DNA of 64,000 bases from an uncultured Candidatus Nemicrothrix sp. (lineage in GTDB: Bacteria; Actinomycetota; Acidimicrobiia; Acidimicrobiales; MedAcidi-G1): the NCBI GenBank assembly GCA_964344855.1, contig CAYFOV010000009.1, positions 28,235 to 92,234 on the forward strand, read 5' to 3'. Positions 2-29,559 of the stretch are shown here, piece by piece. The translations under genes and the position numbers were made by a program. Each line of letters starts with the position of its first letter. The first letter of the stretch is position 1. Below the pieces are notes generated by a model. It searched no databases and was not told the DNA's origin. It saw only the letters and a list, made by a program, of their open reading frames with translations.

Positions 2-670
2 GGGCCGCTGGCGGTCCACGGGGTGCCGGGCACCGGTGCGGCCATCGCCATGGACTTCGGCGCAACCGCAGGGGGTGTGACCGGGGAACTCCTGCCGACG
101 GGAAGGGTGGCCAACCGGGTCGACACGCCATACGGACCCATCGAGGTGACGGTGATGGACCTGGCGAACGTGACGGCCTTCTTCAGCGCCGCCTCCGTCG
201 GCATGTCGGGCCACGAGGGTCCCGAGGGCTTCGGACCCGACCGGCTGGAGGCGGTGGCAGCGGTAAAGGCGGCGGCGGCGGCCCTGCTCGACATGGACCC
301 CGACGGCCTCGTTCCTGTGCCGGCGCTCGTCTCGGCCCCATCCCGCGACGCCCCCGTGCACCTGGTGGCGCGCGTGGTGGGCGGCCGGCCGCCCGTCCTG
401 CACAAGGCCTACCCCGGGACGCTGGCCGCCTGCACCGGGGTGGCGGCCCGCATCCCGGGGACCACGGTCCACTCTGTCGCCTCACCACCCGAGGGAGACG
501 AGGTGCGGATCGGCCATCCGGGCGGGGTCATGCCGGTCCGGGCCAGCGTGGTCGACGAGGGCGGCAGGTGGAGGGTCGAGCGCGCCGAGTTCGACCGCAC
601 CGCCCGCCGGATCGCCGAGGGAACGGCGTACGTGAGGCGGGGCTCGGCTCAGTTGGAAGATGTTGCCTGA
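2..670 (+). CDS. PrpF/GalD-family isomerase (2-methylaconitate isomerase / 4-oxalomesaconate tautomerase-like); 5' end lies outside the window
   Basis: The frame stays open to the window edge (..LAVHGVPGTGAAIAMDF..). The C-terminal half resembles PrpF-family proteins (VRIGHPGGVMPV.., ERAEFDRTARRIAEG). Its TGA overlaps the next ATG (ATGA at 668-672). Confidence 0.55.
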   Translation, partial: GPLAVHGVPGTGAAIAMDFGATAGGVTGELLPTGRVANRVDTPYGPIEVTVMDLANVTAFFSAASVGMSGHEGPEGFGPDRLEAVAAVKAAAAALLDMDPDGLVPVPALVSAPSRDAPVHLVARVVGGRPPVLHKAYPGTLAACTGVAARIPGTTVHSVASPPEGDEVRIGHPGGVMPVRASVVDEGGRWRVERAEFDRTARRIAEGTAYVRRGSAQLEDVA

Positions 671-1143
671 TGGCGTCGGGGGTGCTGTCCCTCAGGGTGA
701 ACGGCCGGGTCAGGCGGGTGCCCAGGTCCGACAACAGGACGCTGCTGGAGGTGCTGCGCCAGGACCTGGCCATGGTGGGCACCAAGCACGGCTGTGACCT
801 GGGGGAGTGCGGGGCCTGCACGGTCCTCCTGGACGGCAGGCCGGTGCTGGCCTGCCTGGTGCTGGCCGTCCAGGTGGGGGATCGCAGCGTCACGACCATC
901 GAGGGCATGGCCCGGGACGGCAGGCCCCACCCCCTCCAGGTGGCCTTCGCCGAGAATGGCGCGTCCCAGTGCGGCTACTGCACCCCGGCCATGCTGCTGG
1001 CATCCCTGGCCCTGCTGGACGAGGCCCCGGCCCCGGCCCCGGACGACATCAGGCGAGCCCTGGCAGGAAACCTCTGCCGCTGCACCGGCTACGGCAAGAT
1101 CATCGAGGCGATCGGGTCGGCCGCCGAAGGGGCCCGGGGCTGA
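670..1143 (+). CDS. hcrC: (2Fe-2S)-binding small subunit of a molybdenum hydroxylase; 4-hydroxybenzoyl-CoA reductase gamma-like
   Basis: Plant-type and second [2Fe-2S] motifs are present (CDLGECGACTVLLDG; QCGYCTPAML; CRCTGY). About 157 aa. ATGA overlap with the upstream gene and TGATG overlap with the large subunit. The small-large-medium order matches hcrCAB. Confidence 0.75.
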   Translation: MASGVLSLRVNGRVRRVPRSDNRTLLEVLRQDLAMVGTKHGCDLGECGACTVLLDGRPVLACLVLAVQVGDRSVTTIEGMARDGRPHPLQVAFAENGASQCGYCTPAMLLASLALLDEAPAPAPDDIRRALAGNLCRCTGYGKIIEAIGSAAEGARG

Positions 1144-3518
1144 TGGGGGTCGCCCACAGCGTCGTGGGGCGGGCCCTGCCGCGGGTCGACTCGATGGAGC
1201 AGGCCACAGGGGGGACCCGCTTCGCCGACGACCTGGTCCTTCCCGGGACGCTGGTCGGACGGCACCTCCTGAGCACCCACCCCCACGCCGCCATAGCGGG
1301 CATCGACACCAGCCGGGCCGAGGCCCTCGAGGGCGTCAGGGCGGTCATCACCGGCCCGGACCTGCCCACCACCTACGGCATCCTCCCCGTCAGCCAGGAG
1401 GAGCACGCCCTGGCCCTGGACCGGGTCCGCTACGTGGGGGAGCCCGTGGCGGCCGTTGCGGCCGACGACGACGCCACCGCCGACCGGGCGCTGGCGCTGA
1501 TCAGGGTGGACTACGAGCCCCTCGGGGAGGTGCTCGACCTGGAGCAGGGCCTGGCCCACGACCTTCCCCTGATCCACGGCGAGGGGACCGGCCCCAACGT
1601 GCACAGGTCGGTGGCGCTCGAGTTCGGCGACGTCGATGAGGGCTTCGGCCTGGCCGACCACGTCCGCGAGGACGTCTTCCACTACAGCGGCAGCACCCAC
1701 GCAGCTCTCGAGACCCACTGCGCCCTGGCCTCGTTCGACGCCACCGGGAAGCTCACGATCTGGTCGTCCACCCAGGTTCCCCACTACCTGCACCGTGCCC
1801 TCGAAAGGGTGCTCGGGCTCCCGGCCGGCCGCATCAGGGTGGTGGCCACGCCCAACGGCGGCGGGTTCGGCGGCAAGACCGAGCCCTTCTCGCACGAGTT
1901 CACCGCAGCCAGGCTGTCGATGCTCACGGGCCGTCCGGTCCGCATCAACCTCACCCGGGAGGAGGTCTTCTACGCCCACAGGGGACGCCACCCCGTGCTC
2001 ATGTGGGTGAGGACCGGCTTCGCGGCCGACGGCCGCATCACCGCCATGCACTTCCGGTCCTTCCTCGACGGCGGCGCCCACAGCAGCTACGGGATCGTGT
2101 CCCTCTACTACACGGGCGCCCTGCAGACCACCACCTACCGGATCCCCAACTACCGCTTCGAGGGGGTCCGGGTCTTCACCAACAAACCGGCGTGCGGTCC
2201 CAAGAGGGGCCACGGCACGCCCCAGCCCAGGTTCGCCGTCGAGTGCCAACTGGACCGGGCCGCCAAGGACCTGGGCCTGGACCCGGTCGGGATCAGGTTG
2301 GTGAACGCGGTGGAGCCCGACTCGAGGACCGTCAACCACCTGCGCATCACCAGCTGCGGCCTCCGCGACTGCATCGCCGAGGTGGTGGCGGCGTCGGACT
2401 ACACGGCGAAGCACGGTCGCATGCCACGCGGTGCAGGGGTGGGCCTGGCGGTCGGGGCCTACATGTCCGGGGCCGGCCTGCCCATCTACTGGAATGACAT
2501 GCCACAGTCCGAGGTCCAGGTGAGGGTGGACCGGGGCGGCGGGGTGACCGCCTACTCGATGGCCGCCGACGTCGGCCAGGGTTCGACGACGATGCTGGCC
2601 ACGGTGGTGGCCGAGACCCTCGGCCTGCAGCCGTCGGAGATCACCATGGTCACCGCCGACACCGACCTCACGCCGGTGGACCTCGGCAGCTACTCCAGCC
2701 GGGTGACGTTCATGGCCGGCAACGCCGCTCTGGAGGCGTCCCGGGAGGTTCGGGACCGTGTGGTCCAGGCGGTGGCCGAGCGGCTGGAGGCCAACCCAGG
2801 CGACCTGGTGCTGGAGGGCGGACGGGTGGCCGTGGCCGGCGACCCGGACGGAGGCGTGGGCTGGCCCGAGGCGGCCCGCATGGCCATCGCCGCGGGTGGC
2901 CCCCTGACGGGGTCAGGTAGCTACAGGGCCCCCGAACTGGCAGGTCCCTACCGGGGATCCGGCGTCGGCATCTCGCCCGCCTACAGCTACTCGGCTTGCG
3001 TGGCCCAGGTCCGGTGCGACGAGGAAACGGGAATGGTCACCGTGGAGAGGGTCTGGCTGGCGCACGACGTGGGGAAGGCGATCAACCGGCTGCTGGTCGA
3101 GGGGCAGATGGAGGGCGGCGTCTACATGGGCCTGGGAGAGGCGTTGTTCGAGGAGCAGGCCTTCCGAGGCGGCCTGCACAGGGGACCCAGCCTGCTCGAC
3201 TACAAGATCCCGACGGCGCTCGAGATGCCGCCGGTGGAGTCCATCGTCGTCGAGTCCATCGACCCCGAGGGTCCATTCGGTGCCAAGGAGGTGGGTCAGG
3301 GACCCCTCCTGGCGGTGGTGCCGGCCGTGGCCAACGCCGTCTACGACGCCCTGGGCGTGCGCGTCGACGAGGTCCCCATCACCCCCTACAAGGTCGTGTC
3401 GGCGCTGCGCGATCGACGTCGCGGCGGTGGGGGGAGGTTCGGCCCCGACACGGTGCCCGACTTCGACTTCGGTGAACCCGTGAGGGTGCGGCCACCTGAG
3501 GGGTCGGTGGTCCCGTGA
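1143..3518 (+). CDS. hcrA: Molybdopterin-binding large subunit of the xanthine dehydrogenase family; 4-hydroxybenzoyl-CoA reductase alpha-like
   Basis: About 791 aa. N-terminus is typical of the family (VGRALPRVDSMEQATGGTRFADD). Also has GGGFGGK and the aldehyde oxidase/XDH a/b-hammerhead and Mo-binding blocks. The start was chosen at the ATG that overlaps the hcrC stop. Confidence 0.75.
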   Translation: MGVAHSVVGRALPRVDSMEQATGGTRFADDLVLPGTLVGRHLLSTHPHAAIAGIDTSRAEALEGVRAVITGPDLPTTYGILPVSQEEHALALDRVRYVGEPVAAVAADDDATADRALALIRVDYEPLGEVLDLEQGLAHDLPLIHGEGTGPNVHRSVALEFGDVDEGFGLADHVREDVFHYSGSTHAALETHCALASFDATGKLTIWSSTQVPHYLHRALERVLGLPAGRIRVVATPNGGGFGGKTEPFSHEFTAARLSMLTGRPVRINLTREEVFYAHRGRHPVLMWVRTGFAADGRITAMHFRSFLDGGAHSSYGIVSLYYTGALQTTTYRIPNYRFEGVRVFTNKPACGPKRGHGTPQPRFAVECQLDRAAKDLGLDPVGIRLVNAVEPDSRTVNHLRITSCGLRDCIAEVVAASDYTAKHGRMPRGAGVGLAVGAYMSGAGLPIYWNDMPQSEVQVRVDRGGGVTAYSMAADVGQGSTTMLATVVAETLGLQPSEITMVTADTDLTPVDLGSYSSRVTFMAGNAALEASREVRDRVVQAVAERLEANPGDLVLEGGRVAVAGDPDGGVGWPEAARMAIAAGGPLTGSGSYRAPELAGPYRGSGVGISPAYSYSACVAQVRCDEETGMVTVERVWLAHDVGKAINRLLVEGQMEGGVYMGLGEALFEEQAFRGGLHRGPSLLDYKIPTALEMPPVESIVVESIDPEGPFGAKEVGQGPLLAVVPAVANAVYDALGVRVDEVPITPYKVVSALRDRRRGGGGRFGPDTVPDFDFGEPVRVRPPEGSVVP

Positions 3519-4579
3519 ACATGCGGCTCCCCGACTTCGAGTACGTGGTGCCCGGGACGGTCGCCGAGGCGGCCCTGCTGCTCTCCGAGCCCGGGCTGGC
3601 GTCGGCCGTGGTAGGCGGCGGGACCGACCTGTTCCCCAGGATGAAGCGCCGCCAGCAGGTCCCGACCACCCTCGTGTCGCTGTCGGGCATCGACGAGATG
3701 CGGGGAATCCGGCTGGCAGGCGACACCTGCGTTGTCGGGGCATCGACGACCCTCGCAGAACTGGAGCGCTCGCACCTGGTTCCCACGGCTCTGTCGGCGG
3801 CCGCCGGACAGGTCGCATCGCCGCAGGTGCGCAACACAGCCACGGTCGGCGGGAACCTGCGCCTCGAGACCCGGTGCAACTACGCCGACATGCCGCCCAC
3901 CTGGAGGGAGGCCTGCGGCCACTGCCTCAAGGAGGGCGGCGACGTCTGCTGGGTGGCCCCCAGGGGCGACAGGTGCTGGGCGGTCAACTCGTCCGACCTG
4001 GCGCCGGTGTCCATCGCTCTAGGGGCGTCGGTGCGGCTGGTCGGCCCGGGCGGCGAACGGGTGCTCCCCGTCGAGGACCTCTATCGGGACGACGGCATCG
4101 CCTACCACTCCATGGAACGCGGCGAGGTCATCGTCGGGCTGCTGGTCCCTGACGACCCACCGCGCGCCGCCTACCGGAAGCTCCGCCGTCGGGGCTCGAT
4201 CGACTTCCCGCTGCTCGGTGTGGCCGTCTCGGGCAGGTTCGACGCGTCAGGGACCTGCACGGAGGCGCGGGTGGTCATCGGCGCCGTCGCTCCTGCCCCC
4301 ATCCGGGCCGGGGAGGCCGAGGCCCTCCTCGTGGGGAGGCACCTCACCGACGACGTGGTCCGGGAGGCGGCCGATGCGGCGTCGCATCCGGTCAGGCCCC
4401 AGGACAACACCGACACCGGCTCCCGCTACCGGAAGTGGATGGCCTCGGTGCAGGCGGGCCGCGCTCTGGAGGACCTGGCACAGGACGGCGGGCGGGAGGT
4501 CGGCGGGGAAGGCGGCGCAGAAGCCGGCGCAGAAGCCGGCACAGAAGAAGCCGGAGACACGAGCGGACGGGAGGCCTGA
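3515..4579 (+). CDS. hcrB: FAD-binding medium subunit of a molybdenum hydroxylase with a Cys-rich insertion; 4-hydroxybenzoyl-CoA reductase beta-like
   Basis: CoxM-like FAD domain (VVGGGTDLFPRMK, TVGGNL). It carries an insertion with C-x15-C-x7-C-x8-C (Cys121/137/145/154). The C-terminus is an Ala/Gly/Glu-rich tail. Confidence 0.7.
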   Translation: MNMRLPDFEYVVPGTVAEAALLLSEPGLASAVVGGGTDLFPRMKRRQQVPTTLVSLSGIDEMRGIRLAGDTCVVGASTTLAELERSHLVPTALSAAAGQVASPQVRNTATVGGNLRLETRCNYADMPPTWREACGHCLKEGGDVCWVAPRGDRCWAVNSSDLAPVSIALGASVRLVGPGGERVLPVEDLYRDDGIAYHSMERGEVIVGLLVPDDPPRAAYRKLRRRGSIDFPLLGVAVSGRFDASGTCTEARVVIGAVAPAPIRAGEAEALLVGRHLTDDVVREAADAASHPVRPQDNTDTGSRYRKWMASVQAGRALEDLAQDGGREVGGEGGAEAGAEAGTEEAGDTSGREA

Positions 4580-4583
4580 GGCG

Positions 4584-5648
4584 GTGACGGGAGACCAGGG
4601 CAGGTACTCGTGGCGGATGGTCCAGCCGGGCCGGCCGCTGGAGCTCCACGGCTCCGCCGGCCGCCGCGCCGGCCCGGGCGAGGTGCTGGTCGAGGTGGCG
4701 GGCTGCGGGGTCTGCCACACCGACGTGGGCTTCTACGACGGCTCGGTCAGGACCCGCGCCGACCTCCCCCTGGTGCTGGGCCATGAGGTGAGCGGCACGG
4801 TCGTGGAGGCGGGAGAGGGTGCTGGCGAGTTGGTCGGGAGCGGTGTGCTGGTGGCCGCGGTCATCCCCTGCGGATGCTGCCAGATGTGCTCGGCGGGCAG
4901 GGGCAACGTGTGCGGCGACCAGCTGATGCCGGGCAACGACCTGGACGGTGGGTTCGCGACCCACCTCACGGTGCCGGCTACAGGCGTCTTCGCCTGCGGT
5001 GACCTGCCCGCGGGGTACGGCCTGGCCGACATGGCCGTGGTGGCCGACGCCCTCACCACCCCGCTCCAGGCCATCAGGCGGGCGGGGGTGGCCGAGGGCG
5101 ACACCGTGGTCGTCGTCGGCACGGGCGGCGTCGGCGGCTTCGCCGTCCAGGTGGCAGCGGCGTCCGGCGGAACCGTCGTGGCCCTCGACGTCGACGACGG
5201 GCGCCTGGCCGCCCTCGACGACCATGGGGCCGCCGCCTCCCTGAACGTTCGGGGAATGTCACCCCGCGGGGTCCGCGAGGCTGTGAGGGAGCTGGTCGCC
5301 TCCCTCGGAGCGTCGGAGGTCGGCTGGAAGGTCTTCGAGTGCTCGGGCACCGCATCCGGGCAGGAGACCGCCTTCGGCCTGGTCGGCACGGCGGCCACCC
5401 TGGCCGTGGTGGGCTTCACGAGGGACAAGGTGTCCATCAGGCTCTCCAACCTGATGGCCTTCGACGCCACGGCGTTCGGCAGCTGGGGCTGCCCGCCCGA
5501 GCGCTATCCGGAGGCCATCCACCTGGTCACGTCGGGACAGGTGGACCTGCTGCCCTTCATCCGCAGGGTGCCGATGGCCGACGTCATGTCGGTCCTGGCC
5601 CCCGGCGGCGGCCACGGCGACCCGCGGCGGCCGGTGCTGGTCCCGTGA
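4584..5648 (+). CDS. had: Zn-dependent alcohol dehydrogenase family; 6-hydroxycyclohex-1-ene-1-carbonyl-CoA dehydrogenase-like
   Basis: GCGVCHTDVGFYDGSVRT..LVLGHEVSG zinc-ADH signature and GTGGVGGFAVQ Rossmann motif. Sits between hcrB and oah. Start set at GTG 4584, 5 nt after the hcrB stop; ATG 4617 is an alternative. Confidence 0.65.
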   Translation: MTGDQGRYSWRMVQPGRPLELHGSAGRRAGPGEVLVEVAGCGVCHTDVGFYDGSVRTRADLPLVLGHEVSGTVVEAGEGAGELVGSGVLVAAVIPCGCCQMCSAGRGNVCGDQLMPGNDLDGGFATHLTVPATGVFACGDLPAGYGLADMAVVADALTTPLQAIRRAGVAEGDTVVVVGTGGVGGFAVQVAAASGGTVVALDVDDGRLAALDDHGAAASLNVRGMSPRGVREAVRELVASLGASEVGWKVFECSGTASGQETAFGLVGTAATLAVVGFTRDKVSIRLSNLMAFDATAFGSWGCPPERYPEAIHLVTSGQVDLLPFIRRVPMADVMSVLAPGGGHGDPRRPVLVP

Positions 5649-5769
5649 GTAGGTCCGCCGCGCCGCCAGGCGCCCCTACCCGGAGGTCCCGGTCAGGTAA
5701 CCCCGCTCCGGGGATCCAACCCCATGAATCCCAGCCCAGAGAGCCGAATCCACAGAAAGGCACGAAGCG

Positions 5770-6870
5770 ATGGAACAGGTGAGCCACGACCTCGACCCGG
5801 CAAGGGAGTTCACAGAGATCCTCTACGAGCACCGGCCGGTGTTCGACGCGGAGGGAACCGAGGTGGACGGCCTCCACGTCGTCTGGATCACCCTGGACAA
5901 CCCCCGCCAACTCAACTCGTACACGACGGAGTCGGTGAAGGACCTCATCCTGGCCTTCCGCCGGGCCTCCGTCGACCGGGCGGCGGTGGCCGTGGTGTTC
6001 ACCGGGGTGGGTGACCGGGCCTTCTGCACTGGGGGCAACACCGAGGAGTACTCGGAGTACTACGCCGGTCAGCCCGGTGAGTACCGCCAGTACATGCGGC
6101 TCTTCAACGACATGGTCTCGGCGATCCTGTCCTGCGACAAGCCCGTGATCAACCGGGTCAACGGTATGCGGATCGGCGGTGGCCAGGAGATCGGGATGGC
6201 CTGCGACTTCACCCTGGCTTCCGACCTGGCGCGCTTCGGACAGGCCGGCCCCAAGCACGGATCGGCTCCCGACGGAGGCTCCACCGACTTCCTGCACCTG
6301 TACGTCGGCTGGAGCGAGGCCGTTGCCAGCTGTGCCCTGTGCGAGCCGTGGAGCGCACACCAGGCGGCCCGCCTGGGCCTGGTCAACGAGATCTACCCGG
6401 TGCTCAGGGTGGACGGCCGGTTCGTTCCGAACCCGCTGGTCGTGACCGATCGCTACCTCGACGAGTGGGGCAGGATCATCCACGGCGAGGCCAAGACCGG
6501 TGAGGAGCTGGAGGCCGGCAAGGCGCTCCTGAAGTCAGGGACCGTCGACTTCGAGCTGCTCGACAGGGGAGTCGACGCGGTCGTAACCAAACTGCTCCAC
6601 ACGATGCCCGACTGCACACAGAAGACCATCGAGTCGCTCAGGAAGAAGAAGTTGGAGCACTGGGACCAGAACCGCGAGACCAACCGCGCCTGGCTGTCGC
6701 TGAACATGATGACCGAGGCCCGGGCCGGCTTCCAGGCCTTCCACCGGGGCGACCGGGAGGTGGGACGCGAGGTCGACTTCGTCGACCTCCGGCGGCGCCT
6801 TGCCGCGGGGGAGCGCTGGGGGGAGGACCTGGTGAGGGCGGTCTCGCCCCAGCACAGGCAGGACAAGTGA
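5770..6870 (+). CDS. oah: Long crotonase-family protein; 6-oxocyclohex-1-ene-1-carbonyl-CoA hydrolase-like (ring-cleaving Oah/BamA type)
   Basis: 366 aa crotonase fold (VVFTGVGDRAFCTGGN, INRVNGMRIGGGQEIGMACDF) with the long C-terminal extension typical of Oah. Flanked by had and dch. Confidence 0.7.
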   Translation: MEQVSHDLDPAREFTEILYEHRPVFDAEGTEVDGLHVVWITLDNPRQLNSYTTESVKDLILAFRRASVDRAAVAVVFTGVGDRAFCTGGNTEEYSEYYAGQPGEYRQYMRLFNDMVSAILSCDKPVINRVNGMRIGGGQEIGMACDFTLASDLARFGQAGPKHGSAPDGGSTDFLHLYVGWSEAVASCALCEPWSAHQAARLGLVNEIYPVLRVDGRFVPNPLVVTDRYLDEWGRIIHGEAKTGEELEAGKALLKSGTVDFELLDRGVDAVVTKLLHTMPDCTQKTIESLRKKKLEHWDQNRETNRAWLSLNMMTEARAGFQAFHRGDREVGREVDFVDLRRRLAAGERWGEDLVRAVSPQHRQDK

Positions 6871-7631
6871 GCGTGGGCCTCGTCCGCCACGAGGTCTCGC
6901 GGGGGGGTGCCGTCCACACGGTCACCCTCGACGCTCCGAGGGGGAACGTGGTCGACATCGCCATGTGCGGGCAGTTGCGGCCTGCGATCGCGGCTGCGGC
7001 GTCCTCGGAGGAGGCCAGGGTCCTGGTGCTCAGGGGGGCCGGGTCCGACTTCTGCTTCGGGGCCAGCGTCGCCGAGCACCTGCCGGAGGTGGCCCCACGG
7101 ATGCTGGAGGCCTTCGGCGGCGTCATCCGGGACCTCGTGGGCTTTCCCCTTCCGACTCTGGCCGCCGTGCAGGGCAGGTGCCTGGGGGGAGGCCTGGAGC
7201 TGGCGCTGGCGTGCGGGATCGTGGTCGCCGAGGAGGGGGCGGTGCTGGGGAGCCCCGAGATCCGGCTCGGGGTGCTGGCCCCCGCGGCTGCCGCCATGCT
7301 GCCGCGGAGGGCGGCCGAGGAGGTGCTCCTCACAGGGCGCGACCTCTCCGCGGCCGAGGCCGGGGCGCTCGGCATCGTCAGCCGGGTTGTCCCCGACGGT
7401 GGCCTGGACGCCGCCGTGGACGGGTACGTCGACGAGCACTTCGTACCCAGGTCGGCCAGCTCGCTGCGCCTGGCGACCGGCCTGGTGAGGAGGCTGAACG
7501 GGCGCAGCCTCGAGGAGAGGCTGGCCGAGGCCGAGCGCACCTACGTCGAGGACCTGCTCGCCACCCACGACGGCGTCGAGGGGATCCGGGCCTTCGTGGA
7601 GAAGCGGCCGCCGGAGTGGCGGAACCGCTGA
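6867..7631 (+). CDS. dch: Enoyl-CoA hydratase family; cyclohexa-1,5-diene-1-carbonyl-CoA hydratase-like
   Basis: 254 aa crotonase (LRGAGSDFCFGASV, GRCLGGGLELALAC, GIRAFVEKRPPEW). GTGA overlap with the oah stop. Confidence 0.65.
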   Translation: MSVGLVRHEVSRGGAVHTVTLDAPRGNVVDIAMCGQLRPAIAAAASSEEARVLVLRGAGSDFCFGASVAEHLPEVAPRMLEAFGGVIRDLVGFPLPTLAAVQGRCLGGGLELALACGIVVAEEGAVLGSPEIRLGVLAPAAAAMLPRRAAEEVLLTGRDLSAAEAGALGIVSRVVPDGGLDAAVDGYVDEHFVPRSASSLRLATGLVRRLNGRSLEERLAEAERTYVEDLLATHDGVEGIRAFVEKRPPEWRNR

Positions 7632-7658
7632 GCCGTTGCCGGCTCAGCCAGCCGGTGC

Positions 7659-7934
7659 TCAGGAACCCAGGCCCGACCCGCGGGTGAACAGGACCGTGCA
7701 CTCCGAGGTGGCCGAGACGGCGCAGGCGGTGCAGGCCCCACCGAACGTGGCGGGGTCCAGGTCGGCGACGGCGGTCTCGAACCCGAGCGACGAGTAGAGC
7801 TCCCGGAGCTCCTCCAGCCTCGACCTGTCGCCGACGGTGCGACGGACCCAGCCGTCGGCCTCGAGGTCGCCCCCTCCGCGCACGGCGATTCCGGCCGAGC
7901 AGTACAGGACCCCGGGGGCCGGGTCTGCGCCCAC
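7659..7934 (-). CDS. Hypothetical small Cys-containing protein (91 aa) immediately downstream of the reductase ATPase genes
   Basis: High GC3 ORF with a GTG start 5 nt after the upstream TAG stop. Four Cys (C12, CTAC, SEC). No canonical ferredoxin CxxCxxCxxxCP motif and no family recognised. Confidence 0.35.
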   Translation of the reverse strand: MGADPAPGVLYCSAGIAVRGGGDLEADGWVRRTVGDRSRLEELRELYSSLGFETAVADLDPATFGGACTACAVSATSECTVLFTRGSGLGS

Positions 7935-7938
7935 AGCC

Positions 7939-8763
7939 CTAGCCGACCGTGGCCGTGGCCGTCCCGCCGGCCCCGATCTTCTCCAGGCGCCGGCGCCCCA
8001 GGATCGCGCAGCCGAGGGCGTGGACGTGCTGGACCATCCCGGCGTCGGGGATGTTCACCTCCGAGTCCAGCATCTCGGCGACCAGCCTCCCCATGGTCTC
8101 GAACCGGAGGATCCCGCCGATGAGGGTGAACTCGGGCTCCGCCCGGACCCGCTTCATGAGCTGGACCGAACGGCCCGTCAGCGACTCGATGGCACCCTGC
8201 ATGATGTCGGCCGGGGCGGTTCCGAGGGAGAGGTGGTTGATCACCTCGGACTCGGCGAACACGGCGCACACCCCGGAGATGGGCACCGAGCCCCTGGAGG
8301 TCGTCATGAGTGGGCCGATCTCCCCGGTGGTGTACCCCATGTAGCGGGCGGTCTTCTCGAGGAACGCCCCCGTGCCGGCCGCGCACTTGTCGTTCAGCCT
8401 GAACGAGAGCACCCTGGCGGCGTCGTCCACCCGGCTGGCCTTCATGGTCTGGCCGCCCACGTCCAGGATGGTGCGTGTGCCCGGGAAGAGGTGCCTGGCA
8501 CCGTGGGCGCAGGCGGTCAGGTCCGTCACGTGCAGGTCCTTGAAGTCGACCTGGTGGCGGCCGGCACCCGTGGCTATCACGTACGAGACGTCACCCTCGT
8601 CGAGGGAGGCGTCGTCCAGGGCCATCTCGTAGACGGTCCGGGCCACCTCCCTGAGCCGGAAGCCCGTCGGGGCCATCGCCCTGCCCAGGACCGTCCCGTC
8701 CTCGGCCTGGATGACCGCCTTGGTGTAGGTGGATCCGACGTCCACCCCGGCGGTGCTGATCAC
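7939..8763 (-). CDS. bzdQ: BadF/BadG/BcrA/BcrD-type ATPase subunit of benzoyl-CoA reductase (bzd-type; Q assigned by gene order only)
   Basis: [16 protein letters not shown]-binding N-terminus. Cluster-bridging Cys motifs [11 protein letters not shown] and [11 protein letters not shown]. About 274 aa. The GTG start overlaps the upstream stop (GTGA at 8760-8763). Confidence 0.7.
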
Positions 8764-9587
8764 GACACCACCCCGACCCCGCCGGCGGCCGGCGCCCTCC
8801 CGGCCATCACGTTGTCGAGGGCGAACAGGGCGGCACCCAGGGCCCCCATGTAGTGGCAGTCGTCGCTGATGTTGAGCGGCCTGCCGAGCCTGTCGCCGAG
8901 GGCCCTGACCATGCCCACGTTCCGGGAGACGCCCCCCGTGAAGGTGACCTCGTCCTCGATCCCCACGCGGCGCATGAGGGCCACGGAACGTGAGGCGATG
9001 GAGGTGTGCACCCCCCAGAGGATGTCCTCGATCCGCTTGCCCTTGCCGATCCACGCCAGCACCTCGGACTCGGCGAAGACCGTGCACGTGGTGCTGATCT
9101 TGACGGGCTTGGTGCTCTCCAGGGAGACCGGTCCGAGCCGGTCGAGGGGGATGTCCAGGGCGGAGGCCGCAGCGCCGAGGAAGCGGCCGGTCCCGGCAGC
9201 GCACTTGTCGTTCATGCAGAAGTCCACGATCTCGCCGTCGGCGCTGACGGAGATGGCCTTGGTGTCCTGGCCCCCCATGTCCACGACGGTCCGGGTGCCG
9301 GGGAAGAGGTGGACGGCGCCGCGGCCGTGGCAGCTGATCTCGGTCACCTGGCTGTTGCCGAACGTGACCCGGAACCGCCCATACCCGGTCCCCACGACGT
9401 ACTCCACCTCCTCCTCGTCGATGCCGCCCTGCCTGAGGGCCTCGACGTAGGAGGCCTCGGCCGCCTGGATCACGTTCGCACCGGTGTCCATGAGCGAACG
9501 GCCGACGATCCGGCGCGCCTCGTCGACGACCACGGCCTTGGTCTGGGTCGAGCCGACGTCTACGCCTGCTGCGTACGCCATCGCCAC
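8760..9587 (-). CDS. bzdP: BadF/BadG/BcrA/BcrD-type ATPase subunit of benzoyl-CoA reductase (bzd-type; P assigned by gene order only)
   Basis: [25 protein letters not shown] and [10 protein letters not shown] motifs. 275 aa. Lies 5 nt downstream of the bzdO-like gene. Confidence 0.7.
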
Positions 9588-9591
9588 CTCC

Positions 9592-10896
9592 TCACCCGGG
9601 AGCCCCGGCGAGGGCCTGCTGGCGGCGCGAGGCCAGGCCCTCGAAGAAGGCGTCGATCCGGTTCTTCATCTGCGCCTCGGAGACGACCCGCCGGTCCATC
9701 ATGTCGGACTCGATGAACAGGCTGGGGATGCCGACCTTCTCCGTGAGGTGCCGCCTGCCGTCGGCCAGGCCGGTCGACACCGTGCGGCAGCTCTTGATCG
9801 GGTGGTAGATGACGCCGTCGGCGTCGAACTCGGCGATCATCTCCTCGAGGACGTCGCCCTGGTGGAACATGGAGTCCATGGCGTCGCGGACCGAGACCAG
9901 CATCCCCTCGGCCAGGCTCGCCAGCGGGTCTCCCAGGTCGTACTCGAAGCCCCGGTTGGTTCCGCCCGAGGCGAACCAGAGGTAGGTGGAGTTGACGAAG
10001 GTGGCGTCCCACTCGCTGAACAGCTCGTTGAACCGGCGGAAGATCGGGTAGCAGGGGACACCCACGAAGAGCAGCCGGTACACCTCCTCTGTGGTCTGGC
10101 CGATCCCGTTTCGGGCCTTGTACTCCATCTCCTCGACCAGCCGCTCGAAGTAGGCGGACCCCTCGGCGGTCCCCCTGAAGCCATTGGCGACGCCGAGGAA
10201 GATCGTCCCGTCGGTCACGGCGTTGAATGGCGAGGGCCTGGCGCAGTTCAACTCCAGCACCTGGTTCCAGCAGCGGCTCATGGTGTTGGCGTGCCCCAGC
10301 ACCTCGCGGAACCGGTCCACGTCGAAGGGGATGCCGGTGACCTCCTCGCAGAGCCCTATGAGCTCGCGCAGCTGCACCTCCACGTAGCGGCGGTCGGCCT
10401 CGAAGTCATCGTCCCCCCTCCAGGTCTGCCCTCCGCCCTGGCGCGTACCCGGCACGTCGATGGTGAAGACGGGCACCCCGTGCATTCGCTCCCAGATCTC
10501 GGCCCACTTGATGTAGGTGTTGCAGGCGTTCGTCAGCACCACGACTCCCGGTGGCGGGATCCGGCCCATCGGGTGCTGGCCGCCCCTGAGCTGGACGGCC
10601 ACGTCCGCTTTCACGTAGCCGCAGATGTCGGGGGAGTAGCCGTAGTCCTCAGCCTCCTCCAGGTACTCGTGGGCGACCCGGCGGACGGCCGTCTGCAGCG
10701 AGTTGATCTCGGGGAACACGACCGGGAGGTCGAAGGTCTTGAGGATCTCGTTGGTGCTGCCCATCACGAACACGTAGGCAGCGGGCCCGCCCTCGGCGGC
10801 GACCCGGTCCAGGTCCGTGAACCAGTCGCGGAACATGGCGGCGCCCTCGTGGTTGCCCCTGCCGACCAGGCTTCCGTCTCGGGCTTCAGTTGGCAT
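9592..10896 (-). CDS. bzdO: Benzoyl-CoA reductase / 2-hydroxyacyl-CoA dehydratase family catalytic subunit (BcrB/BzdO-like)
   Basis: 434 aa of the BcrB/HgdA-type family ([24 protein letters not shown].., [20 protein letters not shown]). AGGAGG lies 6 nt upstream of ATG 10896. Confidence 0.7.
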
Positions 10897-10993
10897 GGCA
10901 GCCTCCTGCCTGCTCGCGCCCGCCGGCTGCCCCGAGGCACTGCTGCGCCCTGGTAGCCGAACGGGAGGACGAACACGGCTCCCGCATGTAGGC

Positions 10994-11098
10994 CCCTGTG
11001 CGATGAGTCCCCGTGCGATGAGTCCCCGTTCGATGAGTCCCCGTGCGAACAGTCCTGGTTCGATGACTTCCCATGCGATGGGCCCTCATGCGAACAGC
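10994..11098. repeat. 15-bp tandem repeat, about 7 units (plus-strand consensus CCCCGTGCGATGAGT), in the bzdN-bzdO spacer
   Basis: Direct reading shows units at 10994, 11009, 11024, 11039, 11054, 11069 and 11084. The three central units are near-identical and the outer ones are degenerate. The last unit contains the bzdN stop codon. Confidence 0.85.
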
Positions 11099-12282
11099 AG
11101 GTGCTCGACGAAGGTCTCGACCTGGAGCTCCAGCTGGCTGAACGAGGTCATGTTCTCCTCGAACTCGCTCACGAAGTAGGCCACGCCCTCCTCGTCGAGG
11201 GCGTGGGTGTATGCCACCTGCTCCTCCAGGCCGGGTTCGCACATCTTGGCGGCGGCCAGGATTGCTGCGTCCGCCCTGGCCTCTCTGATCCGGTCCAGGA
11301 GCATCTTCTCCTTGGGCTTGCGCAGGTCGTGTTGCACCGGGCTGTAGGACGAGCGCTCGATGTAGGCCTCGGCCAGGTTGGTGAGGGGGTCGCCGGCCGT
11401 GGGGACGTCCTCGGTCAGCCACCTCAGGCCGATCAGGAGGTCGTCGTCCACGACGTAGGAGGCCCGTCCGAGCATGCGTACCAGGTCGAACGGCGGCTGC
11501 TCGCAGAACCCGCCCTCGAACACGATCCGGATGCGGTCCTCGGGCCTCCGCCGGCGCCGGCGGACCTGGGGCAGCAGCGTGGCAAGGAGCTGGTTGTGCT
11601 CCTCCCGGGGGATCATCCCGGCCAGGGCCACCAGCGCGAAGGCGTCCTCGGCGTCGATCAGCCATGGGGTCTCGCGCTTGATGTCGTAGAGCTCCCGGAG
11701 GAGCCGCCTGTTCTCGTTGAACACGCGGATCGAGGAGCGCAGGTCGTCGTCGCCGACCTCCGTACCGGCCACCTCCTCGACGACCCTGCGCATCCGGTCG
11801 TACTCGTGTCGCAGGTACTCGAGGCTGCCCGCCGAGTTGGGGTTCTGTGGCAGGTAGAGGATCTGGCACGGGTAGTCGAAGTTGCGGCCCCAGATGGCGG
11901 CCAGGTTCCGGGCCGCGTCACAGATCGGGTGGGAGACGAACAGGTCCAGGCGGACCTGTTCGCTGAGCGCCAACTCCAGGGAGGTCTTGAGGATCGAGCA
12001 GAGGTAGGAGCCGAAGTGCGAGTCGGCCACGTTGGGCTCGACGGGCGCTCCCCTCACCTTGAACGGGAGCATCCCGGCTGCGTGGACGATCTCCTCCGGG
12101 AAGGCCACCTGGAAGTGGCCGGCGACCTTCCCGCCGGCGTCCCGCCAGCGCGCCACGGTCTCGAACTCGGGGGACTCGACCATTTCCCGGCACTCGAGCA
12201 GGGCGTCGTCGAGGGGCTTGTCGCGCCATTCGGGGAAGACCAGGGTGGTGGGGGCCGCTGCGGGGGCGGTCGCGGTGCTCAT
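11086..12282 (-). CDS. bzdN: Benzoyl-CoA reductase / 2-hydroxyacyl-CoA dehydratase family subunit (BcrC/BadD/BzdN-like)
   Basis: 398 aa (GHFQVAFPEEIVHAAGMLPFKV, ICDAARN, AKMCEPG). ATG 12282 overlaps the TetR stop (ATGA). First gene of the four-gene reductase operon. Confidence 0.7.
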   Translation of the reverse strand: MSTATAPAAAPTTLVFPEWRDKPLDDALLECREMVESPEFETVARWRDAGGKVAGHFQVAFPEEIVHAAGMLPFKVRGAPVEPNVADSHFGSYLCSILKTSLELALSEQVRLDLFVSHPICDAARNLAAIWGRNFDYPCQILYLPQNPNSAGSLEYLRHEYDRMRRVVEEVAGTEVGDDDLRSSIRVFNENRRLLRELYDIKRETPWLIDAEDAFALVALAGMIPREEHNQLLATLLPQVRRRRRRPEDRIRIVFEGGFCEQPPFDLVRMLGRASYVVDDDLLIGLRWLTEDVPTAGDPLTNLAEAYIERSSYSPVQHDLRKPKEKMLLDRIREARADAAILAAAKMCEPGLEEQVAYTHALDEEGVAYFVSEFEENMTSFSQLELQVETFVEHLLFA

Positions 12283-12923
12283 CGGGAGGCCACACCGTCG
12301 GAGCCGGCCCCGTCGAAGAAGAGGTCCATGACCTGTTCCAGTTGGGCGTCGGTCCCCTGGAGGGTGTCGGCGGCATAGCGCCCTATCACCACCTCGACCA
12401 GCGCCACGAACGACCACGAGAGGATCCGGGGGTCCCGGTCCACGACCTCTCCTGCGGCTATCCCGTCACGGAGGATCTCCTCGATGAGCTCGGGCAGCGC
12501 ATGCTGGTATGCGCTGATGAGGTTCTCGCGTTCCTCTCCCCTGAAGGTGTTGATGTCCCGGCGCACCAGGTGGGTCAGCTCGCGCTCCTCGAAGGGAAGT
12601 TCCAGGTAGTCCCTCGTCAGTTGGGCCAGGCGCTCCCTGGCCGTTCCCTCCATGGCCACGGCCCGGCTGAAGAGCTCGTGCTTGTTCTGGAAGTCGGCGA
12701 GCATCATGGAGGTGTAGAGGTCCTCCTTGCTGGCGAAGTGGTGGTAGAGGCCCCCCTTGGTGACCTCGGCCGCCCGGGCGATCATGTCGGTGGTGACGTC
12801 GGCGTAGCTGCGGGTGACGAAGAGGCCCCTGGCAGCCTCCAGGATCCTGGCCGATGTGGCCTCGGACCTGCTCGGAGGATCGGCTGGCATGTTGGCCCTC
12901 GTGTCTCTTGTTGGTGACGTCAT
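12279..12923 (-). CDS. TetR/AcrR family transcriptional regulator
   Basis: N-terminal HTH (ILEAARGLFVTRSYADVTTDMIARAAEVTKGGLYHHFASKEDLY). Its stop overlaps the bzdN start. ATG 12890 is an alternative start. Confidence 0.8.
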   Translation of the reverse strand: MTSPTRDTRANMPADPPSRSEATSARILEAARGLFVTRSYADVTTDMIARAAEVTKGGLYHHFASKEDLYTSMMLADFQNKHELFSRAVAMEGTARERLAQLTRDYLELPFEERELTHLVRRDINTFRGEERENLISAYQHALPELIEEILRDGIAAGEVVDRDPRILSWSFVALVEVVIGRYAADTLQGTDAQLEQVMDLFFDGAGSDGVASR

Positions 12924-12945: not shown

Positions 12946-12959
12946 ACCGACCGGTCGGT
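12946..12959. promoter_or_regulatory. Perfect 14-bp palindrome ACCGACCGGTCGGT; candidate TetR operator in a divergent promoter region
   Basis: Self-complementary when read on both strands. Lies 23 nt upstream of the tetR ATG (12923) and 77 nt upstream of the hemerythrin GTG (13036). Confidence 0.45.
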
Positions 12960-13035: not shown

Positions 13036-13587
13036 GTGAGCGCCACCTCGGTGCTCAGGGAGGAGCACCAGGTGATCCTGGGCGTGGCCGGGTCGCTGGA
13101 GCGGCTGGTGGCAGGGGACCCCGACAAGGCCGACCTGGAAGCCCTGTCGGCATGCGTGACCTTCATCCGGCTGTACGCCGACGCCTGCCACCACGCCAAG
13201 GAGGAGGACCTTCTCTTCCCGGCCCTGGCCGACCGCGGCCTCCCGTCCGGGGCCGGCCCCGTTGCGGTGATGCTGGCCGAGCACGAACAGGGTCGGGCCC
13301 TCACGCGTGGGATGGCGGGAGCGCTGGAGCGACTCGGGGCGGGAGATGGTGGGGCGTACGCGGACCTGAGGGCCGCCGCCGTGGCCTTCGTGGACCTGAT
13401 TACGGGTCACATAGCCAAGGAGGACGGGATCCTGTTCAACATGGCCGACAGGCTGATCGGGGAGGCGGCCTGCCAATCCCTCACCGACAGCTACGCGGCC
13501 CTGGCGGGCGCCAGGTTCGAGGGCTACTCGAAGCAGGACCTGGAGGCCCTGGCAGGCGAGATCGCGGCGGCGGCAGCAGCCTGCTAG
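13036..13587 (+). CDS. Hemerythrin domain-containing protein
   Basis: Hemerythrin-like His/Glu pattern (LREEHQVI, ADACHHAKEEDLLFP, MLAEHEQG, HIAKEDGILF). 183 aa. Confidence 0.7.
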   Translation: MSATSVLREEHQVILGVAGSLERLVAGDPDKADLEALSACVTFIRLYADACHHAKEEDLLFPALADRGLPSGAGPVAVMLAEHEQGRALTRGMAGALERLGAGDGGAYADLRAAAVAFVDLITGHIAKEDGILFNMADRLIGEAACQSLTDSYAALAGARFEGYSKQDLEALAGEIAAAAAAC

Positions 13588-28291: not shown

Positions 28292-28401
28292 GGCGGGGAC
28301 AACCCTGCACCAGCCGAAGCGGCTGCCGTAGGGGCCGGCCGCGGTGCAGAGCGGGCGCGGGGTGACCGGTACCCTTGCCTGACCCCAGGCAGGAGGAGCG
28401 C

Positions 28402-29559
28402 ATGGCCACCGACCCGGAACTGGCCGACCAGATAGTCGGCACCGTACGCAGCTGGGTTGAGCGCGACGTCATCCCCAACGTGGCCCGCTTCGAGGCTGCC
28501 GACGAGTTCCCGCAGGCCATGTTCGCCCAGATGTGCGGCTTCGGGCTGTTCGGGGCGACCATCCACGAGGAGTACGGGGGCCTGGGCCTGGACGTGACCA
28601 CCTACACGCGGATCATCGAGGAGCTCTCCCGCGGCTACATGTCCCTGGCCGGAATCCTCAACACCCACAAGATCGCGGCCACCATGATCGCCCGCTTCGG
28701 CACTGACGAACAGCGCAGCAGCCTCCTGCCGCGTATGTGTGACGGCTCCTTCCGGGCTGCCTTCTCGCTCTCGGAGCCCGACGCTGGAAGCGACACCGGC
28801 GCCCTCCGCTGCCGGGCCGTCCGCGACGGCGATGAGTGGGTGGTCAACGGCACCAAGATGTGGGTCACCAACGGCATGAGGGCCTCGCTGGTCATGCTGC
28901 TGGCCCGCACCCCCGATGACCGGATCACCTGCTTCCTCGTGGAGAAGGAGCCGGGCGAGGAGTACGGCGGCATCACCGTGTCGAAGAAGATCGACAAGCT
29001 GGGCTACCGGGGCCTCGAGACCGTGGAGATGTCCTACGTGGACCACCGGATCCCTGCCGACAGCGTGCTCGGCGGCGAGGAGGGCATCGGACACGGGAGG
29101 GGCTACGCCCTCTCGGCCCTGGAGCTGGGGCGGATCAACGTGGCGGCCAGGGCAGTGGGCGTGGCCCAGGCCGCCTTCGAGGCGGCCATGGCGTACGCCC
29201 AGCAGCGTGAGGCCTTCGGCCGGCCGATCGTGCAGCACCAGGCGGTCTCCTTCCGGCTGGCTGAGATGGCCACCAGGCTGCAGGCCGCCAGGCTCATGAC
29301 CTACGACGCCGCCCGCCTGGCGGACCTGGGCGAGCGCGTCGACCTGGAGGCGGGCATGGCCAAGCTGTTCGCCTCGGAGGCCGCGTTCGAGATTGCCGCC
29401 GACGCAATGCGGATCCACGGTGGCAACGGCTATACAACCGAGTACCCGGTGGAGCGCTACCTTCGGGACGCCCCCCTCATGATCATCGGCGAGGGCACCA
29501 GCGAGATCCAGAAGATGGTGATCGCACGCAAGCTGGTGGAGCGCCACCCGGTGGAGTGA
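28402..29559 (+). CDS. Acyl-CoA dehydrogenase
   Basis: ACAD blocks ([50 protein letters not shown]). AGGAGGAG lies upstream of ATG 28402. Confidence 0.85.

Follow-up and report, generated by a model that had tools for sequence, protein, structure and literature searches.

Organization of the gene cluster

The 64-kb window (the whole stretch of DNA analyzed here) opens with a block of convergent genes that probably constitutes the window part of a cluster of ~23 kb for oxygen-independent, benzoyl-CoA-type aromatic degradation in an uncultured Acidimicrobiia-like actinobacterium. The plus strand first carries the 3′ part of a gene for a PrpF/4-oxalomesaconate-tautomerase-like protein (23–670; 381 aa for the whole gene on the contig), the last gene visible from the cluster's upstream half. 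It is followed by three genes for a 4-hydroxybenzoyl-CoA reductase (HCR)-like enzyme, namely an HcrC-like small subunit with two [2Fe-2S] domains (670–1143; 157 aa), an HcrA-like molybdopterin subunit (1143–3518; 791 aa), and an HcrB-like FAD subunit that carries the [4Fe-4S] insertion specific to HCR (3515/3521–4579; 352–354 aa). Three genes for the processing of the reduced ring complete the plus strand: had, a Zn-dependent alcohol dehydrogenase gene for 6-hydroxycyclohex-1-ene-1-carbonyl-CoA dehydrogenase (4584–5648; 354 aa); oah, a long crotonase gene of the bamA type for the ring-opening 6-oxocyclohex-1-ene-1-carbonyl-CoA hydrolase (5770–6870; 366 aa); and a short crotonase gene for a Dch-like dienoyl-CoA hydratase (6867/6873–7631; 252–254 aa).

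The minus strand carries the reductase operon. Its first gene encodes a TetR-family regulator (12279–12890/12923, with a start at 12923 or 12890; Pfam TetR_N and TetR_C_24), followed by an MbdN-like electron-transfer catalytic subunit (N; 11086–12282; 398 aa), an MbdO-like substrate-binding catalytic subunit (O; 9592–10896; 434 aa), an MbdQ-like ATPase (Q, alpha; 8760–9581/9587; 273–275 aa), an MbdP-like ATPase (P, delta; 7939–8763; 274 aa), and, as the last gene, a small conserved CxxC protein (orf91; 7659–7934). Upstream of the TetR gene lie a 14-bp palindrome (12946–12959), a candidate TetR operator, and a divergently oriented gene for a hemerythrin-domain protein (13036–13587, plus strand; Pfam Hemerythrin, 73.9 bits).

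At ~71% G+C the window yields open reading frame (ORF) lists crowded with spurious frames, and the gene map was drawn by combining frames of high GC3 (G+C at third codon positions) with the gene calls of the public contig. Both sources reproduced the genes at the coordinates given in an earlier, sequence-only reading of the window; the 91-aa ORF orf91, between the second ATPase gene and dch, is an addition to it. GC3 is 0.87–0.96 across all twelve genes and the matches to specific families have E-values of 1e-54 to 1e-260, which excludes a chance ORF pattern. N, O, Q, and P are contiguous on one strand, with the stop codon of Q overlapping the start codon of P (GTGA). The N–O spacer is unusually long (190 nt; ~30 nt in relatives) and is filled by a 15-nt tandem repeat (10994–11080, minus strand; 5.8 copies; Tandem Repeats Finder score 104) with a unit of about GGGACTCATCGCACG on the coding strand.

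Type of the reductase and its cofactor residues

Class I benzoyl-CoA reductases (BCRs) are typical of facultative anaerobes and comprise three recognized types, BCR, MBR, and BZD (PMC11971306). The MBR type is that of the 3-methylbenzoyl-CoA reductase MbdONQP described for Thauera chlorobenzoica (PMC11971306), with structures in PDB entries 9g87 and 9gai. On sequence grounds, the product of the minus-strand operon is a class I aryl-CoA reductase, ATP-dependent and of this MBR (MbdONQP) type. Pfam recognizes two HGD-D catalytic subunits and two distinct BcrAD_BadFG ATPases encoded together, as in MBR, and all four proteins align with their Mbd counterparts over the full length: N with MbdN (9g87_B; 525 bits, 58% identity), O with MbdO (9g87_A; 522 bits, 53% identity), Q with MbdQ (9gai_D; 412 bits, 68% identity), and P with MbdP (9gai_C; 288 bits, 53% identity), the reciprocal assignment of Q and P being clear. 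The sequence-only reading had correctly recognized an ATP-dependent class I aryl-CoA reductase, but its assignment to the Bzd type is wrong: BzdN and BzdO (PDB 8s02) reach ~91 bits with the window N and O, compared with 288–525 bits for the four Mbd subunits. Nor does its argument from two short ATPases hold, because MbdQ (269 aa) and MbdP (273 aa) are also short and ATPase length therefore cannot separate BZD from MBR.

The Pfam domains of the operon, HGD-D and BcrAD_BadFG, are all that Pfam sees, and they are shared with the 2-hydroxyisocaproyl-CoA dehydratase HadBC and its activator HadI (PDB 3o3m, 4eht), members of the same BCR/HAD radical-enzyme superfamily. The names given by NCBI to close homologs include ‘2-hydroxyacyl-CoA dehydratase’ and ‘(R)-2-hydroxyisocaproyl-CoA dehydratase subunit beta,’ and no reductase subunit reaches a BCR equivalog cut-off. 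From these points the minus-strand genes could be read as a 2-hydroxyacyl-CoA dehydratase with its activator, and the crotonase and alcohol dehydrogenase genes as those of ordinary β-oxidation. We regard this as highly improbable, and the sequence comes close to excluding it. HadB and HadC score 127 and 129 bits against O and N at roughly 25–30% identity, compared with 522–525 bits at 53–58% identity for MbdO and MbdN; two different ATPase genes match the MbdQ–MbdP heterodimer, rather than a single homodimeric activator; and the pathway context is another one, with Had and Oah passing equivalog models of the dearomatization pathway. As for the cut-offs, NCBIfam contains no model for the MBR type. 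The best NCBIfam models are BcrB for O (211 bits) and BcrC for N (243 bits), against cut-offs of 487 and 421, and authentic MbdNOQP also falls below the cut-offs with near-identical scores (BcrC, 230 bits for MbdN vs 243 here; BcrB, 221 vs 211). The missed cut-offs thus reflect the lack of an MBR model and not non-membership. The Bzd models TIGR03190, TIGR03191, and TIGR03192 give 89.9 (cut-off 454), 92.9 (cut-off 449), and 180 bits (cut-off 380). Because there is no curated MBR-type model, automatic names are inconsistent; in JGI data the reductase is automatically annotated as ‘benzoyl-CoA reductase subunit C.’

In a neighbor-joining tree of N subunits, in which the references MbdN, BzdN, and HadC are fragments from PDB alignments, the window N belongs to a subclade of Acidimicrobiia sequences; the clade around it spans multiple phyla and has Thauera MbdN as its sister, with HadC and BzdN distant. 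N and O do not cluster with the 2-hydroxyacyl-CoA dehydratases. A plasmid protein search with the N subunit returned only distant matches (≤31% identity) that are Bzd-, HAD-, or YjiM-like.

The residues expected to hold the metal clusters are in place. In O, C92, C125, and C370 align with the [4Fe-4S] ligands C95, C128, and C380 of BzdO, and Y94 corresponds to the thioester-binding Tyr97 of BzdO. E63 is conserved with MbdO and HadB and is likely the counterpart of BzdO E65, judged by spacing in a region outside the HMMER alignment. Across 74 relatives these cluster ligands, Glu63, and Tyr94 do not vary. At position 128, O has Tyr, compared with Phe in MbdO and the catalytic His131 in BzdO, and residues 44–47 read VMGS vs IAGN in MbdO; Tyr128 and VMGS occur in all 74 environmental O subunits and form a clade-specific active-site signature. 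N has all six Cys in common with MbdN, and only three canonical Cys align with BzdN. The three further Cys shared by BzdN and the double-cubane protein 7yyl are replaced in both the window N and MbdN, which share three others instead (C31, C139, and C260). Neither feature of the BZD type is therefore present, that is, the six-Cys double-cubane [8Fe-9S] site in N or His131 in O. The Cys motifs that the sequence-only reading had listed for the ATPases, NDKCAAGTG and C(T/A)VFAESEV, occur in both proteins: C129 (NDKCAAGTG) and C168 (CTVFAESEV) of Q are also found in MbdQ, and C127 (NDKCAAGTG) and C166 (C.VFAESEV) of P in MbdP. By this alignment we assign C129/C168 and C127/C166 as the cluster-bridging cysteines.

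The window operon thus resembles MbdONQP in its four-subunit pairing (N, O, and two ATPases of ~270 aa) and in its shared Cys residues (six in N, three at the O cluster, and the bridging ones in the ATPases). It differs from the betaproteobacterial MBR in its actinobacterial host, in the extra orf91 and linked hemerythrin gene, and in that no stand-alone ferredoxin gene was seen in the window cluster. With BcrCBAD of Thauera aromatica and BadDEFG of Rhodopseudomonas palustris (BCR type) it shares the class I family and the ATP-coupled logic, but N and O reach only about half of the BcrB and BcrC equivalog cut-offs, and both window ATPases are ~274 aa long, unlike BcrA at ~430–440 aa. BzdNOPQ of Aromatoleum sp. 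CIB likewise belongs to the class I BCRs and has two short ATPases (PMC11971306), and BzdO keeps the same three Cys that ligate its catalytic [4Fe-4S] cluster plus the same Tyr (Tyr97); in contrast, three double-cubane Cys are absent from the window N, His131 is replaced by Tyr in O, and the ~91 bits obtained with BzdN and BzdO lie below the scores against the dehydratase HadBC.

Ring processing, electron supply, and regulation

The Had and Oah proteins pass their NCBIfam equivalogs (TIGR03201, 404.7 bits, cut-off 338.65; TIGR03200, 566.9 bits, cut-off 464.45), and in every Acidimicrobiia locus dch keeps its synteny with oah and had. 

Upstream of had, the HCR-like set is complete by Pfam (two [2Fe-2S] domains, Fer2 and Fer2_2, in the small subunit; Mo-pterin; FAD), with the gene order C-A-B. 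For the HcrC-like subunit, TIGR03193 (4-hydroxybenzoyl-CoA reductase gamma) is the best NCBIfam match (183.7 bits, cut-off 257.8). The HcrA-like subunit scores 863.6 bits against TIGR03194 (cut-off 994.55; next family 503) and aligns end to end with Thauera HcrA (PDB 1rm6_A; 631 bits), the next best match being CoxL at 290 bits. The HcrB-like subunit scores 250.4 bits against TIGR03195 (cut-off 404.55) and forms one continuous alignment with 1rm6_B (165 bits) across an insertion loop of ~40 residues. All four Cys aligned with C122, C138, C146, and C155 of HcrB, which we take to be the numbering of its [4Fe-4S] ligands, are present in the window subunit. The four-Cys [4Fe-4S] loop and the HcrA match support the claim of the sequence-only reading that the Mo/FAD/FeS enzyme is HCR-like, and it is probably a true HCR. 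It shares with HcrCAB of Thauera aromatica (PDB 1rm6/1sb3) the gene order, the three cofactor subunits, and the family-specific loop; unlike the Thauera enzyme, it lies below all three NCBIfam cut-offs, and its beta subunit has a low-complexity Ala/Glu/Gly C-terminal tail. This tail, which extends beyond the alignment with Thauera HcrB, is encoded by a 12-nt tandem repeat (4501–4547). Found in only four of the related Acidimicrobiia loci, hcr is an optional module.

The sequence-only reading had seen neither a low-potential ferredoxin nor a system to reduce it. The first part stands for the window, in which no dicluster ferredoxin motif (CxxCxxCxxxC) was found in 64 kb. The second part does not, since two sets of 2-oxoacid:ferredoxin oxidoreductase genes lie on the same contig 4.5–10 kb upstream of window position 1 (L002 26–5469), and the ‘missing’ ferredoxin-reducing system is therefore an effect of the window edge. 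One set comprises an IorA-like protein that passes its equivalog (655.4 bits, cut-off 650.9) and an IorB-like partner to which a 2x[4Fe-4S] ferredoxin domain is fused at the C terminus; the second set encodes a 2-oxoacid:acceptor oxidoreductase of three subunits, alpha, beta, and gamma (alpha, 554.6 bits, cut-off 411). A Gemmatimonadota locus also has the IOR pair beside N-O-Q-P. Between these sets and the window (L002 5466–10001) lie genes for an HMGL-like (homocitrate/isopropylmalate-synthase-like) protein, a DUF35/BbsA-like protein, and a BbsB-like thiolase. The PrpF-like protein scores 278 bits against NF033377, below the cut-off of 440. In Acidimicrobiia, had has the HMGL-like, DUF35, thiolase, and PrpF-like genes as conserved neighbors, and in Gemmatimonadota this holds in part.

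From this gene inventory we infer the following pathway, which would be used under anoxia. Reduced ferredoxin would most likely be supplied by the upstream 2-oxoacid:ferredoxin oxidoreductases, or electrons would be donated by the ferredoxin domain of the IorB-like protein. The Q/P heterodimer, with its bridging [4Fe-4S] cluster, would use ATP hydrolysis to push ferredoxin-derived electrons to a very low potential, and these would pass via the FeS cluster of N to the [4Fe-4S] cluster of O, predicted to have three Cys ligands and one open site. O would then reduce the aromatic ring of the CoA thioester to a cyclic dienoyl-CoA, after which Dch would hydrate the diene, Had would oxidize the resulting alcohol, and Oah would open the ring to yield 3-hydroxypimeloyl-CoA, with the upstream thiolase/DUF35 pair handling β-oxidation. 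The HCR-like enzyme would feed this pathway by removing the para-hydroxyl group of 4-hydroxybenzoyl-CoA with ferredoxin electrons, delivering benzoyl-CoA to the reductase.

In mbd clusters a TetR-family regulator heads the reductase genes, and genes for a dienoyl-CoA hydratase, a dehydrogenase, and a hydrolase lie nearby. The window resembles the mbd cluster of Aromatoleum/Azoarcus sp. CIB in this layout. However, its TetR protein is not an MbdR ortholog, given that the match to MbdR (PDB 4uds) amounts to 26.8 bits and covers the helix-turn-helix only. The 14-bp palindrome ACCGACCGGTCGGT is perfect and is located 23 nt upstream of the longer TetR start. TetR is kept upstream of N in the 31 related loci with enough upstream sequence for an operator comparison, and the palindrome is found upstream of TetR in all 31, from several phyla, with ≤3 mismatches and mostly 0–1 (background 0.05 per window); its conserved form is ACCGACCGGTC(G/A)GT. 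A second copy of the core, TCCGACCGGTCGGA, is present at L002 6803–6816, in the divergent promoter region between the HMGL-like and DUF35 genes. The candidate operator would thus mark a single TetR regulon of ~23 kb, and TetR probably represses both promoter regions via ACCGACCGGTCGGT until an aryl-CoA effector appears.

Distribution, host, and substrate

Relatives were drawn from a collection of species-representative genomes, and loci were compared for the best 80 of at least 561 relatives. Reductase relatives occur in at least 561 species genomes from many phyla. The best 80 (68–86% identity) include about 20 Acidimicrobiia together with members of Gemmatimonadota, Planctomycetota, Acidobacteriota, Chloroflexota, Zixibacteria, Eisenbacteria, and Acidiferrobacteraceae. 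Thauera MbdN is 56–63% identical to all 80 loci and is an outgroup to the whole environmental clade. For the N subunit alone, >120 clusters match at 79–86% identity, and the named ones are metagenome-assembled genomes (MAGs) of Acidimicrobiales/Acidimicrobiia, which agrees with the actinobacterial host proposed in the sequence-only reading. The nearest relatives, at 80–86% identity, are such MAGs. The taxonomic surprise voiced in that reading is smaller than claimed in view of the many Acidimicrobiia MAGs with the same cluster and the many phyla with relatives.

N-O-Q-P is kept in all loci compared. The Acidimicrobiia arrangement is hemerythrin / TetR-N-O-Q-P-orf91 / dch-oah-had, of which TetR-NOQP-orf91 and dch-oah-had are kept in ~12 Acidimicrobiia loci and hcr in four; in three other loci, without hcr, had is directly followed by the PrpF-like, thiolase, DUF35, and HMGL-like genes. 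The Gemmatimonadota locus contains had, oah, thiolase, DUF35, N-O-Q-P, HMGL-like, and IorAB genes in another order, and this reordering of the same gene set argues for a functional linkage between them. Thirteen loci from Blastocatellia/Pyrinomonadaceae MAGs have N-O-Q-P at 65–75% identity and lack orf91, TetR, had, oah, and dch within 10 kb; the reductase in these loci may serve another pathway.

The cluster might be foreign to its surroundings, through chimeric assembly, misbinning, or a very recent horizontal transfer from Proteobacteria, in which case the actinobacterial context would be meaningless. G+C does dip to 0.67–0.69 at 9–13 kb, compared with ~0.71 for the window, and some related contigs are binned into unlikely taxa (e.g., ‘Kiloniellaceae’ for one). 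However, the lower G+C comes from codon positions 1 and 2 in the genes of very conserved proteins, and in codon usage and GC3 the twelve genes stay inside the range spanned by 40 other window genes. The window lies on a 127-kb metagenomic contig (ERZ930065), and three more runs each gave an independent assembly of the region; the gene order across both borders is the same in all four sequencing runs (six contigs of 50–200 kb), so the contig is not a chimera. The cluster is shared by about 20 Acidimicrobiia species genomes, six of them also with the hemerythrin gene, and the Acidimicrobiia sequences form their own subclade, at 56–63% identity to Thauera MbdN. Codon usage and the independent assemblies lead us to reject a chimera or recent transfer, and a foreign origin of any of these kinds is exceedingly unlikely.

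Several observations weigh against the assignment of the block to oxygen-independent degradation of benzoyl-CoA. At the level of single proteins, the reductase subunits miss the NCBIfam cut-offs for BcrA/B/C/D and BzdN/O/Q and are only 53–68% identical to the characterized MBR; Thauera BcrBC and Rhodopseudomonas BadDE are represented by hidden Markov models only, outside the tree. All three HCR subunits are below their equivalog cut-offs, with the HCR models by far the best. The sequence-only reading named dch, had, and oah together; had and oah pass their equivalogs, but dch does not, although TIGR03189 (cyclohexa-1,5-dienecarbonyl-CoA hydratase) is its best match (209.5 bits, cut-off 292.5; next family 136). 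At the level of gene content, a free-standing ferredoxin was not found in the window or the 10 kb upstream, and neither was an aromatic acid-CoA ligase (74 kb together). The latter agrees with the sequence-only reading, the only AMP-binding ligase of the window (~41.1–42.7 kb) being of the long-chain fatty-acid type, as it passes the model for the long-chain fatty-acid-CoA ligase subfamily. No terminal oxidase or respiratory gene was identified among the window ORFs scanned; the flanking genes from which an ‘oxygen-oriented’ context had been proposed are present, but as a context they are only suggestive. Many loci of the wider clade (e.g., in Pyrinomonadaceae and Blastocatellia) contain NOQP without had, oah, and dch within 10 kb, and the reductase is therefore not always tied to a dearomatization pathway. 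Finally, given the 53–68% identity and the active-site signature of the clade, the substrate could differ from that of the characterized enzyme.

This last point bears on the possibility, which we consider unlikely but worth weighing, that the MBR-family reductase is not a general benzoyl-CoA reductase and acts on a substituted or other aryl-CoA, such as 3-methyl-, 3-hydroxy-, or halo-benzoyl-CoA, or a CoA ester derived from an aromatic amino acid and made by the IOR-type oxidoreductase. The closest characterized enzyme is a 3-methylbenzoyl-CoA reductase, from whose MbdO the signature of the clade differs. The IorA equivalog and the IorB with its ferredoxin domain adjoin the cluster and recur beside NOQP in the Gemmatimonadota locus, and the absence of an aromatic ligase from the 74 kb would be explained because such oxidoreductases make a CoA thioester and reduced ferredoxin in one step. 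On the other hand, an IOR would give arylacetyl-CoA, and the enzymes needed for α-oxidation were not seen here. The equivalogs passed by Had and Oah are built on the pathway for unsubstituted benzoyl-CoA, the HCR-like enzyme, whose product would be benzoyl-CoA, is encoded in the same operon as these, and MBR enzymes reduce benzoyl-CoA as well. Benzoyl-CoA, as opposed to a substituted analog, appears to be the more plausible substrate within the benzoyl-CoA-type pathway that we prefer.

Accessory genes and wider occurrence

A single-sequence search with orf91 retrieved only two proteins, and a profile search was needed for the family, which consists of proteins of 75–130 aa (940 representatives at 50% clustering). 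There is no Pfam match, the profile search of PDB sequences gave noise only and hence no match in the solved MBR entries, and an AlphaFold2 model (pLDDT 73.7) yielded nothing with E <1 in a Foldseek search against PDB. Invariant residues of orf91 are GW..R...D..R..E....Y...G and C..C...TR, and the motif of the family is GWxRR...ELY..LG.E...YTR alongside the invariant CxxC; with only two invariant Cys, orf91 was rejected as a ferredoxin. Among 58 related loci, drawn from many phyla, 42 have a homolog after P. In two unrelated organisms the orf91 domain is fused to a hemerythrin domain, which by eye closely resembles the window hemerythrin; in one organism it is fused to a RidA/L-PSP domain. The hemerythrin gene is at the same position in five Acidimicrobiia loci, and in a sixth locus a homolog lies elsewhere, ~6.5 kb beyond N. 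The hemerythrin-domain protein is likely accessory to the cluster, and together with orf91 it may function in O2/NO sensing or in the protection or repair of the FeS clusters of the reductase.

A more speculative proposal, which we hold to be improbable at present, is that the environmental multi-phylum MBR-like clade is a distinct form of ATP-dependent Birch reductase with parts absent from proteobacterial models: the orf91–hemerythrin pair as a fifth component, and an IOR-type oxidoreductase with a ferredoxin domain in place of a free ferredoxin and an aromatic ligase. If true, orf91 and its di-iron hemerythrin partner could, by sensing or scavenging O2 or NO or by repairing FeS clusters, allow largely aerobic bacteria to keep an oxygen-labile reductase, and the breakdown of aromatics without oxygen in abundant ‘aerobic’ lineages (e.g., Acidimicrobiia, Gemmatimonadota, Acidobacteriota, and Planctomycetota) would have been overlooked.

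The biochemistry of class I BCRs comes almost only from denitrifying Proteobacteria (PMC11971306). For Acidimicrobiia such reductases have so far been known only at the level of annotation, with benzoyl-CoA reductase mentioned in passing for UBA5794 (PMC12008989), and for this clade in Actinobacteria or other phyla we found only passing, annotation-level mentions in the literature. The window adds a complete, natively embedded, and apparently TetR-regulated MBR-type pathway in Acidimicrobiia. The nearest relatives of the characterized MBR occur in at least 561 species genomes that are mostly uncultured and in many cases from lineages usually deemed aerobic, and ring reduction without oxygen may be a much wider capacity in sediments, oxygen-minimum zones, and soils than marker surveys based on Bcr, Bzd, or BamB assume. 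These findings extend a known enzyme family to new hosts and do not overturn current understanding; the CxxC protein, its hemerythrin partner, and the conserved operator provide concrete experimental handles.

Elsewhere in the window, a second molybdopterin large subunit of the xanthine dehydrogenase family is encoded at 29579–31873 (plus strand), and the scanned genes flanking it contain no Pfam domains of FeS or FAD subunits. An acyl-CoA dehydrogenase gene (28375–29559) adjoins it; this enzyme was rejected as a glutaryl-CoA dehydrogenase (246 bits, cut-off 470) and reaches no equivalog cut-off. The further genes that the sequence-only reading had noted around the cluster, encoding LLM, DtxR, Ald/Lrp, FGE-sulfatase, DAO-type flavoproteins, and an epoxide hydrolase, are all present.

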